From: Nanobdellota archaeon
GTDB taxonomy: Archaea; Nanobdellota; Nanobdellia; Pacearchaeales; GW2011-AR1
Length of the DNA: 28,728 nucleotides
Reading direction: 5' to 3'
NCBI GenBank assembly: GCA_034722215.1
Contig: JAYENS010000047.1
Location: 1 to 28,728, forward strand
The notes under the pieces were generated by a model. The model did not search any database, was not told the origin of the DNA, and saw nothing but the letters and a program-made list of their open reading frames with translations. Positions 6,791-10,882 of this stretch are shown piece by piece. Each line of letters begins with the position of its first letter. The stretch's first letter is position 1. The position numbers and the translations under genes are program-made.

Positions 6791-7474
6791 TTAACCTTCA
6801 ATAACAGTTCCAACAAATTTTTTATTTTTCAAAAAATTATCAAGTTCTTTAACGTCTTTAATTATCAAAGTTTTAATCTTGTTTTCCATAATAATTTTAG
6901 AAGCTGTTTGATCTAAAACAAAATGTTGTCCTGGTTTAAATTTTATTTTTTGTGCTAATTTATTAAATTTTTTCCAAGTTATTTTAGGAATATATTTTGC
7001 ATTTTTAAACATTTTAGGATTTTTATCATAAAGTCCTTTAATATTTGTAACATTCACAAATTCTCCCTTAAGTTTTCTAGCAATCTCTGCAGCAGTTGAA
7101 TCAGAAGTTTGGTTTGGTTTATATTTCAAAGCGCCACAAATTACAAAGTTTCTTTTTTTCAAATATTTTTTCAATGTTTTAATATTGTGAGGAATTCCCC
7201 ATTCGGGATTATATCCAAAAAAATATGAAACAAAACGCGCGTTTGCACGAGTCGCATTAATTCCTACTAAAGATTGATGATATAAATCTCCTTTCTCTTT
7301 TGCAATCGCTTCAATATATTTTCTAGCAAGATTTCCTCCTCCACAAACAACAACAATTTTATATTTTTTCTTATGTTTAATTATAACTTCCTTAAATTTT
7401 TTTAAATAAGAATAATTAACTTTATCTGGAATTATTTGGCTACCTCCAAGACTAATAACAATCACCTTTTTCAT
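6791..7474 (-). CDS. pyrH: Uridylate kinase (archaeal type)
   Basis: VISLGGS, VVCGGGNLARKYI, TSDSTAA, TNIKGLYDKNPK and PGQHFVLDQTA motifs. Confidence 0.95.
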   Translation of the reverse strand: MKKVIVISLGGSQIIPDKVNYSYLKKFKEVIIKHKKKYKIVVVCGGGNLARKYIEAIAKEKGDLYHQSLVGINATRANARFVSYFFGYNPEWGIPHNIKTLKKYLKKRNFVICGALKYKPNQTSDSTAAEIARKLKGEFVNVTNIKGLYDKNPKMFKNAKYIPKITWKKFNKLAQKIKFKPGQHFVLDQTASKIIMENKIKTLIIKDVKELDNFLKNKKFVGTVIEG

Positions 7475-7582
7475 ATACTCTAAAACAAAATAATCTTTTT
7501 ATAGTTTGTTAAAAGAATTTTTTGTAGTTAAATTAATTAACCTTCCAAAATAAAGAAGGAACACATCTTCTGATATTATCAA

Positions 7583-7589
7583 TTATAAA
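7583..7589 (+). promoter_or_regulatory. TATA-like box positioned to drive transcription of the repeat array
   Basis: TTATAAA about 22-29 nt upstream of 7611-7618 where the first unit begins; same spacing as promoters of coding genes in the window. Confidence 0.45.
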
Positions 7590-7610
7590 TGTTTTAGCGA
7601 CACGGAGTGC

Positions 7611-7904
7611 GAGTTAGGTTGTAAGAGAACTAGTGGATTTATTTATTTTTATCGTTTCTATCGGAAGCATTTTTAGAAACAACCATTCACTTCTTCAAGG
7701 AGAGTTGTAAGAGAACCAGCGGATTTATTTGTTTTTTTGTGACTTCAGACGAGGGCTCAATAAGAAGTCACCGTTCAGTGTTTTGAGGAGAGTTGTAAGA
7801 GAACCAGCGGATTTATTTGTTTTTTTGTGACTTCAGACGAGGGCTCAATAAGAAGTCACCGTTCAGTGTTTTGAGGAGAGTTGTAAGAGAACCAGCGGGT
7901 TCTT
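7611..7904 (+). repeat. Non-coding tandem array of 86-88 bp hairpin-containing units
   Basis: Anchor GTTGTAAGAGAACYAGYGG at 7618, 7704, 7792 and 7880. Units 2 and 3 are identical; unit 1 differs but keeps a hairpin at the same position. Confidence 0.92.
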
Positions 7905-8186
7905 TTACTTCACTGTAAATAAATCCCGATCATCGACTTGAAAGACATCTAATCTAACCCCTGAATCAATCCATCCATGAGCATAATTTAAAGCACCAAA
8001 AGCTAAAACCCATTCTCCTTTTTCTTCAAAATGTTGTGCATCTGAAATATAATTACCAACCATTTCAATTATCTCTTTTGCATATTCTTCCTTTCCAGGG
8101 ATAATACTTTCTTTAACAATTTTAAAAGCATCTTGAGTGATTTTAAAATATCTTTCTAATTTGTCTTGAGTTATTTCTTTATTCAT
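7905..8186 (-). CDS. DUF357 family archaeal protein
   Basis: YISDAQHFEEKGEWVLAFGALNYAHGWIDSGVRLDVF is the DUF357 signature; 93 aa. Confidence 0.9.
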   Translation of the reverse strand: MNKEITQDKLERYFKITQDAFKIVKESIIPGKEEYAKEIIEMVGNYISDAQHFEEKGEWVLAFGALNYAHGWIDSGVRLDVFQVDDRDLFTVK

Positions 8187-9303: not shown

Positions 9304-9391
9304 TGATTTAGTTACTTACAAGAAGATAATTTATAAAGTGAAAGGTTTAAATATTTATTTTTTATTATTATTTTAAAGGTTGTTACTTACA

Positions 9392-10882
9392 ATGGCATAT
9401 AAAAAATATATTAAAAGAAATGGGAAGATTTATGGCCCATATATTTATCATAGTAAACGTGTTGATGGGAAAGTTGTTTCCGAATATAAAGGTCCAAAAA
9501 AATTAGAAAAAGATTTTAAAAAATTAAAATTAATTTTAACAATAGCAGGAATGATAATTATTGCTGTCTTTCTTCTATGGATTTTATTAACAAAAACTCA
9601 AATTACAGGAAATGTTGTTGCAGAAAAACAATCTTATCTTTCCAAGAGTAAAATTTTTGGAAATTTAAATTTAGTGTTACAAGAGGGAGAATTAATTCCA
9701 ATAAATTCGAAAGTATTTATAAAAAGTGGAGAAAACTCTTATGAATATAATCTTTCAGAATTAATTTCTTCACAACAAACTTCTGGAAATTATTATTTAG
9801 AAAATGTAAATGTACAAGGCTCTGGAGAAGGTTTTGGATTTCCTGGAAATTCAGAAGATGCTGAAACAATATTTTTTCAATATAAAATAACAAAACAAAA
9901 TTATTCTCCAGAACCAGAGGAATCTCTAAAAGAAGATTTAATAGAAATTATTGAAGAAAATAAAACAGAAGAAAATAAAACAGAAGAAAATAAAACAGAA
10001 GAAAATAAAACAGAAAAGAATAAGACAATTAGTGTTGAAGAAAATACTTCAATAATAGAACCTCCTGAAGAAAATGAAAGTTCTGAATCTATTTCAGATT
10101 CAACAGAAGAATTAGAACAAATTGAAGAGACTCCTAAAACAACTCCTATAACTGGCGCAGTAATTGGAGATATTTCAAATAAATTGTTCAAGATAACTGG
10201 AAATGTTGTAAATGAAAATATTCAAGCAGATGTTTCAAAAGATAAAGAATTCAAATATAAATTAAAAGAAGATGAGAAATTTGAAATAATTTATGATTCA
10301 GTAAGAATAGAAGAAGGTCAAATAAGTCAAGATAATTTAAAAATTGAATATCAGGATAATTTTGTAATTGTTTCAACAGTTTATTCTAAACAAGAAAAAG
10401 GTTTTGGAAAAGATTATTTAAGTTTAAATAAAAAAGCTTATGAAATTTTGTTAGGAGAAGAATTATTCACTCAAGATTTAGAAGTAAAAATAATTTATCA
10501 AGATAAGGAAATAGCTTTCTATTCTCAAAAAGCAGAATTAGCAATTCAAACTCCTGAAGAACCAGAAAAAATTCTCCTTGTCGAAGAAGATTATACTCTT
10601 GAATTAAATCAAGAAGAAATTGATATTTTAAAAGAAAGATTTGGAGAAATAGAAATTTCAACTTCTGCACAAATTTATAGAGATAAAACATTAGTAATTT
10701 TCAAGATAAGTGATTATCAAATAGAACATTATTATGATGGTGCTCTGCCAGATCAAGAAATAACAGATTTAATTGAACAAGATAAAATAAGATTTTTAAA
10801 AGATTTTGCAAGAGAATTCTTGAAACAAGAACAACAAAAACAACCTTTGCAAATTTTTACTGATTCAGAAATTATTACCTAA
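9392..10882 (+). CDS. Membrane-anchored acidic surface protein with a basic N-terminal motif
   Basis: Likely start ATG 9392 (MAYKKYIKRNGKIYGPYIYHSKRVDGKVVSEY), one TM helix, and a large acidic extracellular part. Confidence 0.85.
   Translation: MAYKKYIKRNGKIYGPYIYHSKRVDGKVVSEYKGPKKLEKDFKKLKLILTIAGMIIIAVFLLWILLTKTQITGNVVAEKQSYLSKSKIFGNLNLVLQEGELIPINSKVFIKSGENSYEYNLSELISSQQTSGNYYLENVNVQGSGEGFGFPGNSEDAETIFFQYKITKQNYSPEPEESLKEDLIEIIEENKTEENKTEENKTEENKTEKNKTISVEENTSIIEPPEENESSESISDSTEELEQIEETPKTTPITGAVIGDISNKLFKITGNVVNENIQADVSKDKEFKYKLKEDEKFEIIYDSVRIEEGQISQDNLKIEYQDNFVIVSTVYSKQEKGFGKDYLSLNKKAYEILLGEELFTQDLEVKIIYQDKEIAFYSQKAELAIQTPEEPEKILLVEEDYTLELNQEEIDILKERFGEIEISTSAQIYRDKTLVIFKISDYQIEHYYDGALPDQEITDLIEQDKIRFLKDFAREFLKQEQQKQPLQIFTDSEIIT
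9953..10027 (+). repeat. 15-bp coding tandem repeat (EENKT x4 plus EKNKT)
   Basis: GAAGAAAATAAAACA four times, then GAAAAGAATAAGACA. Confidence 0.95.

Follow-up and report, generated by a model that had tools for sequence, protein, structure and literature searches.

In the tandem array at positions 7518-7910 of the window (the whole 28,728-nt contig that was analysed, C47 of its genome), three good copies and one degenerate copy of a non-coding element have piled up; the element measures about 88 nt and carries two hairpins. We consider it probable, at roughly 0.7, that the array is a cluster of a dispersed mobile mini-element.

Composition of the array and fold of the element

In agreement with the original prediction, the 19-nt anchor GTTGTAAGAGAACYAGYGG was found four times on the + strand, at 7618, 7704, 7792 and 7880, with anchor-to-anchor periods of 86, 88 and 88 nt, and none of 100 shuffles gave a match. 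When run on the window, TRF reported a period of 88 nt (2.3 copies, 100% identity, 7698-7898). Hairpin 1 is formed by GTTTCTA/TAGAAAC at 7654-7680 in the first array unit and by GTGACTTC/GAAGTCAC at 7739-7771 and 7827-7859 in the two B units; these hairpins, as well as the AGGAGA boxes, were located where they had been predicted. The terminal hairpin was also present, with a stem longer than claimed: instead of AGAACC-AGCG-GGTTCT, it reads GTAAGAGAACC-AGCG-GGTTCTTTTAC and forms 11 bp at 7883-7908. The tRNA/tmRNA scan detected nothing in the array region. The features of the array are collected in Table 1.

Table 1. Features of the array, in window coordinates.
Feature	Position	Strand	Remarks
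Probable degenerate unit 0	7518..7567	+	T-run, short palindrome replacing hairpin 1, CCTTCC, purine box GAAGGAAC
50-nt module with TATA-like ATTATAAAT, purine box to hairpin 2	7568..7617	+	about three quarters identical to G000:C38:28741-28790
Anchor 1, variant ...CTAGTGG	7618..7636	+	5' arm and loop of hairpin 2, cut after the loop
Unit A body	7637..7703	+	AT-rich leader 7637-7650; hairpin 1 7651-7683; CCATTCA; AGGAGA 7698-7703
Anchor 2	7704..7722	+	anchor sequence match
Unit B body, copy 1	7723..7791	+	leader; hairpin 1 7739-7771; CCGTTCA; GAGGAGA; model match 7734-7822, 86 bits
Anchor 3	7792..7810	+	anchor sequence match
Unit B body, copy 2	7811..7879	+	identical to copy 1 (TRF); unitig depth 2.6x flanks
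Only complete hairpin 2 in the array and element 3' end TTTTACTT	7880..7910	+	stem 7883-7893/7898-7908, loop AGCG; folds as 11 bp
DUF357 stop codon (convergent gene)	7905..7907	-	inside the 3' arm of hairpin 2; ORF 7905-8186

In its natural order, the unit is composed of a short pyrimidine/AT-rich leader, hairpin 1 (8-bp stem), CCGTTC, about 8 nt, GAGGAGA and hairpin 2, the 3' arm of which (7898-7908) is kept only by the last array unit. The anchor corresponds to the 5' arm and loop of hairpin 2. It had been taken for the 5' start of the unit, whereas it forms the front half of the hairpin at the unit's 3' end.

Upstream of the first anchor, the probable degenerate unit 0, whose boundary is uncertain by about 10 nt, could be aligned by eye with the CCGTTCC...GAGGCGAG part of the copy on contig C38. 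Near this unit, the sole match of the element model was weak (7565-7648, E 0.58), and the local alignment with C38 begins only at 7568. The alignment of the 50-nt module runs on into the anchor, and in C38 the module likewise extends from the purine box to hairpin 2. The TATA-like motif (7583-7589) lies inside this module, which recurs in one other copy, that of C38. Unit A was matched by the model at 7646-7734 with 71.6 bits, and its part at 7639-7701 showed 97% identity to G000:C53:3046-3108 by BLAST (G000 being the genome of the window). Furthermore, the 31 nt at 7880-7910 are 100% identical to G000:C53:3198-3228.

Between array units 2 and 3 the identity is 100%, and the contigs in Logan are interrupted within the array, as would be expected if the assembler had collapsed or duplicated these units. 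However, in the single run examined from the source metagenome (Logan), a 113-nt unitig lying over the B unit had a depth of 67, compared with 25.5 and 26.8 for its flanks. This 2.6-fold depth relative to both flanks indicates that at least two, possibly three, tandem B copies exist and that the duplication is real. In addition, tandem clusters with the identical junction occur on other contigs and in other genomes. An assembly artefact is therefore considered extremely improbable.

Head-to-tail junctions all break the upstream unit at a fixed place within the 3' arm of hairpin 2, 2-5 nt beyond the loop. The breakpoint follows AGCRG at the three internal junctions of the window and also in C53 and C16, whereas it follows AGCGGGTT in the congener G015 and AGGGGGTTG in G114. 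The 19-nt anchor thus recurs because the upstream units are cut at one fixed position of hairpin 2, and this breakpoint could be where a newly made strand is first able to fold back.

Hairpin 1 differs between subfamilies A and B of the element through compensatory changes. For 41 copies from this genome and its relatives, 94.2% of the stem cells were paired and 14 of the 16 pairs were changed on both sides, in an alignment that was fitted to the model and hence flatters the pair count; the stems covary. The observed pairing was reached by none of 500 shuffles, and slid partner columns gave 43-58%. The same two helices were returned by RNAalifold on a MAFFT alignment. Conservation across genera extends to the YCGGAGGCA loop of hairpin 1 and to the two boxes CCGTTC and GAGGAAG. 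The conservation of these loop and linker motifs exceeds what a passive template-switch substrate would need, which hints at specific recognition by a protein or at a function as RNA.

Concerning the nature of the folded molecule, the stems contain 20 G-U against 19 A-C combinations and carry no strand signal. Without an excess of G-U, nothing singles out RNA from the + strand as the fold under selection; folding as single-stranded DNA has at least the same likelihood. Pairing of the hairpin 1 loop (NCGGA) with the linker (TCCGN) in a pseudoknot was not supported for the family as a whole, the majority TTCAG subfamily having an uncompensated C-A; a few compensatory variants make such pairing possible in the TTCCG subfamily. 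When Rfam was searched over the window, only tRNA-Gln passed the gathering threshold. At permissive settings (E up to 10), the best match in the region 7400-8000 was SNORA32, with 17.5 bits against a gathering threshold of 60 and an E value of 5.1.

Distribution and insertion sites

The genome, that of a DPANN archaeon of the Woesearchaeota type, was obtained from a brine metagenome and comprises 525 kb in 56 contigs. The anchor (2 mismatches allowed) and the whole unit recur on six other contigs of this genome. An HMM and a covariance model (R1) were built from ten of its own copies, and R1 detected 14 solid copies at E<=1.3e-9, besides several degenerate ones. These copies include a second tandem A-B pair on C53 and long variants on C24 and C38, with about 70 extra nt in hairpin 1. 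The array is consequently not the orphan that had been supposed: its unit is dispersed genome-wide in about 14 copies. The suggestion of a REP-like cluster with exchangeable hairpin cassettes was essentially right, since the unit is a dispersed multi-copy repeat whose hairpin 1 exists as the A and B forms.

Outside this genome, model R1 had matches in 16 of 61 relatives. Ten of the 22 congeners are among them, as are three other genera, which have 6-8 copies each. Of 151 Woesearchaeales genomes sampled, 19 were matched by a broader model (R2), at between 1 and 14 copies per genome. By family, matches were obtained in 17 of 105 genomes in that of the window, in one of five from a second and in none of the 24 sampled from a third, f4. 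As these genomes are MAGs of 70-98% completeness, a copy that was not found is not to be equated with one that is absent. The element family is patchy among the relatives.

The insertion of the array can be followed at the locus of the window. The spacer between DUF357 and pyrH measures 434 nt, against 40-50 nt in the three congeners that keep the two genes adjacent (G002, G020 and G015), where the DUF357 stop codon almost touches the pyrH TATA box. Together with unit 0, the array accounts for the approximately 390 nt beyond the spacer of the congeners. The DUF357 protein ends at a residue shared with the congeners (...FTVK before the stop). As this protein ends unchanged and its stop codon falls within the 3' arm of hairpin 2, the array is placed exactly against that codon. 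From the comparison of these loci, the array is an insertion between the pyrH promoter and the DUF357 stop codon. Two other sites of the genome were compared with their orthologs. The C3 site was empty in 22 orthologous loci, in which the 28-nt repeat that flanks the element is single-copy, and the C25 site was empty in 17 of the 17 congeners with a contig reaching it, the repeat of about 57 nt being single-copy there.

As a separate observation, an unrelated insert, about 360-540 nt long and with a small open frame, occupies the DUF357-pyrH space in G001, G004, G017 and G008 (loci L067, L072, L073 and L075); insertions thus appear to be accepted repeatedly at this spot.

Landing sites were tabulated for 42 copies. 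In eight of them, the stop codon of a convergent gene falls within the last 1-6 nt of the element, another eight lie 3-12 nt after a co-directional stop codon, and about 12 abut or lie near tRNA genes; this proximity to gene ends is not claimed as an enrichment, as in compact genomes almost any intergenic element is near a gene end. Copies were found in either orientation to the neighbouring genes. One copy (L036:1501-1584, G010:C17) lies antisense in the intron of a tRNA-Ile(GAU) gene and starts right after the anticodon loop. Another (L059:2972-3063, in the Woesearchaeota MAG contig CAYITA010000048.1) forms a 90-nt in-frame, stop-free insert of 30 aa in pyrH, between the conserved ...NPIKSK and NAKFIP, and the gene remains open.

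Tyrosine-recombinase genes were observed 0.5-2.5 kb from tRNA-adjacent copies at G178:C1:1263-1748 and G144:C1:51842-52309. They probably belong to separate integrated elements at the 3' side of the tRNA genes.

The original prediction had preferred an orphan transcribed RNA acting as guide, decoy or antitoxin, and had named genome-wide dispersal beforehand as the outcome that would speak against it. More generally, the array could have been kept because it benefits the host, either as a functional non-coding RNA of several units or in cis, as a 3'-UTR element or terminator. The fold is indeed conserved, and so, without variation, are the single-stranded motifs, two GGAGG-like boxes among them; upstream there is a TATA-like motif, and the copies usually stand just behind genes and end in a hairpin followed by a T-run. 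However, the site was empty in every congener examined at the three loci, so that positions are not conserved between congeners, and the number of copies varies from 0 to 14 in a patchy distribution. The copies in frame in pyrH, antisense in the tRNA-Ile intron and in either orientation to their neighbours also argue against a role for the host, as do the lack of an Rfam match and of a G-U excess over A-C in the stems. Finally, the neighbouring genes in the window would transcribe the array antisense. Conservation for host benefit is accordingly considered very unlikely, and the guide, decoy or antitoxin RNA is not supported.

Duplicated gene ends and possible routes of spread

The flanks of 40 copies were compared with mismatched-flank controls. 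For nine copies, the direct repeat of the flanks exceeded the 95th percentile of the controls. Clear duplications measured 11, 17, 21-28, 29, 32 and 55 nt, and further cases were present in G130, G178, G114 and G191. The duplicated stretch consists of the last 11-57 nt of the upstream gene or of the first 11-27 nt of a tRNA. The left duplicate is the end of the intact gene: it ends at the stop codon, within 1 nt, in four clean cases of protein genes, and stops 0-6 nt outside the tRNA in the tRNA cases. Between the left duplicate and hairpin 1 are found 3-19 poorly conserved nt, whereas the right duplicate begins no more than 2 nt from the 3' end of the element. The anchor that recurs in tandem arrays is the counterpart, within the element, of this duplicated gene end. 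About three quarters of the copies have no flanking duplication; either there are two modes of insertion, or old duplicates have decayed.

At locus L174 (G191:C7:43110-43835, - strand), two elements are stacked behind one gene, and three copies of its last 15 codons (VETNVPRNLETLRLR, then stop) are present. These gene-end copies in G191 show 6-10 codon differences, all of which are synonymous, a pattern that does not fit a simple target duplication followed by decay. Similarly, the duplicates at C25 differ only by two synonymous codons and by the stop codon, which is TGA in one and TAG in the other. In appearance, the displaced copies are gene ends that were functional in another lineage, or in this one before the insertion. 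This kind of divergence in G191 and C25 points to a spread between lineages by homologous recombination, with the gene end serving as homology arm.

Other small inserts were noticed at similar places. At G000:C25:1-230 (L111, - strand), behind a PCNA-like gene (...PRVETED before the stop), a different hairpin unit of about 52 nt is arranged in tandem, and behind each unit 14 nt of the gene end are repeated (gagNNgaggattag). Other unrelated mini-hairpin inserts occur at the same PCNA-like gene end in G010 (L147) and G022 (L151), with the same 14-nt gene-end copy. In G003, a separate segment of about 43 nt (tgtcaccaatat...) is found at the 5' end of two tRNA-Leu genes (L037:1591-1660 and L047:640-713), one of the two sites having a 14-nt duplicate of the tRNA start.

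For the element itself, we propose a selfish DNA that would spread in two steps without an enzyme of its own. The first step would be a copy-and-paste event on single-stranded DNA during replication or repair. The nascent strand would leave its template at a pause point, either a gene boundary or hairpin 2 starting to fold back, copy a donor element to the end of hairpin 2 and return slightly upstream, whereby the target would be duplicated. This template-switch version of the first step is tentative and rather doubtful, and it gives no reason for the nascent strand to halt exactly at a stop codon. The second step would be ordinary homologous recombination between related lineages, in which the conserved gene end would act as homology arm and the resident gene end would remain as an intact, unused duplicate; to this recombinational spread between lineages we assign about an even chance. 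No movement was observed, and no polymorphic pair of filled and empty sites was found within one population.

A route through an RNA copy, as in SINEs, would have the element transcribed to the T-run after hairpin 2 and reverse transcribed at a nicked target. The precise 3' junction (hairpin followed by TTTTAY), the poorly conserved stretch on the side of hairpin 1 and the variable length of the duplications, 11-57 nt, are all consistent with it. Furthermore, in the first family-level sample of 15 genomes, reverse transcriptase was detected in four of four element-bearing genomes and in three of 11 others, and the genome of the window encodes one of about 350 aa at G000:C15:3321-3926 (RVT_1, 71.9 bits). 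However, this link was lost within the genus, where 4 of 10 element-bearing genomes and 7 of 12 others were positive and no association remained, and among the 151 Woesearchaeales genomes (11 of 19 versus 50 of 132). RVT_1 had no match in the genomes with 14, 9, 8 and 7 copies (high-copy genomes without it: G106, G114, G144 and G178), which are incomplete MAGs, and G-U did not exceed A-C in the stems. Retroposition of this kind is considered quite unlikely.

Movement could instead depend on a dedicated DNA enzyme that recognises the hairpins. Candidates would be a transposase of the Y1/HUH type, which serves REP/REPIN-RAYT and the PATEs, and a nuclease so far unrecognised that would cut at the loop of hairpin 2. 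The covarying stems and conserved loop motifs resemble those of hairpins recognised by transposases, all tandem junctions share one breakpoint at the loop of hairpin 2, and Y1 transposases occur in the family (13 of 41 genomes). On the other hand, Y1 transposase (PF01797) was not found in the genome of the window or in G030, G032, G114, G144 and G178, all of which carry several copies and are incomplete; it was present in G027 and G106, one of five high-copy genomes being positive. TnpB was found in none of five high-copy genomes. Cas1 (PF01867) was likewise absent from the genome of the window and four copy-rich relatives, while the same search was positive for 7 of 14 control genomes. Tyrosine recombinase (PF00589) was detected in all five genomes tested and also in 14 of 14 controls, and is uninformative. 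Moreover, transposition of the IS200/IS605 type (Y1) makes no target duplication. This route is unlikely on these grounds; a dedicated enzyme of an unrecognised kind is nevertheless a serious rival to the two-step proposal, given the well-conserved loop motifs.

Since no enzyme was found to track the family, host replication and recombination would be favoured as the machinery of spread. We regard it as possible, with somewhat less than an even chance, that the array represents a hitherto undescribed class of mobile elements of DPANN archaea, defined by their structure and lacking a transposase, which would insert precisely at gene or transcript boundaries with long variable duplications and then recombine between lineages via the duplicated, still-coding gene end; the array would record repeated events at the element's own 3' hairpin.

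Comparison with described elements

A literature search found no published description of this element family. A CRISPR array was rejected, as the apparent spacers are conserved structured repeats (units 2 and 3 being identical and unit 1 97% identical to the C53 copy) and no Cas1 match was obtained.

Like REP/REPIN-RAYT sequences and the haloarchaeal IS200/IS605 PATEs, the element is short, non-coding, multi-copy and intergenic, has covarying hairpins, is often clustered and lacks terminal inverted repeats in the MITE sense. In contrast to them, no Y1/HUH transposase was found in its own genome or in most of the copy-rich relatives, and its units are arranged head-to-tail, whereas those of REP/REPIN form inverted pairs. 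Its long target duplications, above controls in 9 of 40 copies and missing in about three quarters, also differ from the absence of duplication in Y1 transposition.

With the prokaryotic MITEs (Correia/NEMIS, ERIC and RUP, and those of Sulfolobus), the element shares a miniature, gene-less, dispersed and patchy character and a location next to genes. It is small (about 88 nt), non-coding and multi-copy, with 0-14 copies per genome and empty orthologous sites, as expected for MITEs with presence-absence variation. However, its 5' end (YCTTTGT...) and its 3' end (...GGTTCTTTTAC) are not inverted copies of each other, its duplications are absent or of 11-57 nt without fixed length, and no parent insertion sequence was found. 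The REP/REPIN, PATE and MITE models thus share the small, structured and multi-copy nature of the element but fail on transposase, terminal repeats or target duplication.

The Rickettsia palindromic elements are small structured repeats of a reduced genome that lie in frame in protein genes without breaking them, and to our knowledge no transposase is known for them. Unlike these, the present element offers one in-frame case only, that of pyrH, most of its copies are at gene ends, and there is no sequence relationship. SINEs and other target-primed retroposons resemble it by a precise 3' end, a ragged 5' end and duplications of variable length; here, in contrast, reverse transcriptase does not track the family, neither an internal promoter nor an A-tail is present, and G-U is not in excess. 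Elements bounded by attL/attR and moved by tyrosine recombinases also differ, as the present element is an 88-nt non-coding sequence and the duplicated sequence is different at every site.

Closer parallels exist for the duplicated gene end. The tRNA-linked repeats (TLRs) of E. coli (Egan and Landy 1978, as described in PMC8144298) consist of 1-5 tandem units behind a tRNA or rRNA gene, each unit closing with 18-19 bp that repeat the 3' end of the gene upstream (PMC8144298). The succession of gene end, element and gene-end copy is the same, and the recurring 19-nt anchor may be compared with it. However, the two are not related in sequence; TLRs are confined to enterobacterial stable-RNA operons and are conserved in place, whereas the present element also occurs downstream of protein genes, within an intron and within a coding gene.

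In the "insertion with long target duplication" described for restriction-modification genes (Nobusato et al. 2000; Furuta et al. 2010, PMC2853133), direct duplications are long and variable and often overlap the 3' end of a gene, the inserts carry no mobility gene, their mechanism is unknown and tandem amplification proceeds through the repeats (PMC2853133). Similarly, the repeat flanking the present element is single-copy at the empty site (28 nt at C3, about 57 nt at C25), and no mobility gene is carried. The Furuta cases differ in being kilobase gene cassettes of bacteria, none from archaea having passed that survey, as opposed to a family of 88-nt structured repeats; the threshold of the survey was >30 bp (PMC2853133), and several of the duplications reported here are shorter. 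In its insertion behaviour, the element fits no described mobile-element family.

Genomes of the Woesearchaeota type have about 0.5-1 Mb and almost no spacer DNA, yet the family reaches up to 14 copies in single genomes and leaves the genes unbroken. Its landing sites are stop codons and tRNA ends, where it re-creates the gene end that it displaces. If no enzyme encoded by the element is needed, this would represent a distinct way of life for selfish DNA in streamlined genomes, and a source of tandem repeats, of new 3' UTRs and occasionally of peptide segments in essential proteins. The synonymous-only divergence of the stacked gene ends would in turn read out the exchange of DNA between uncultured DPANN lineages. 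In genome annotation, such arrays should not be taken for CRISPR-like or guide-RNA loci.

The window contains a further tandem repeat at 9953-10027, where the 15-nt unit GAAGAAAATAAAACA occurs five times in a 500-aa ORF (9380-10882) and gives rise to EENKT peptide repeats.
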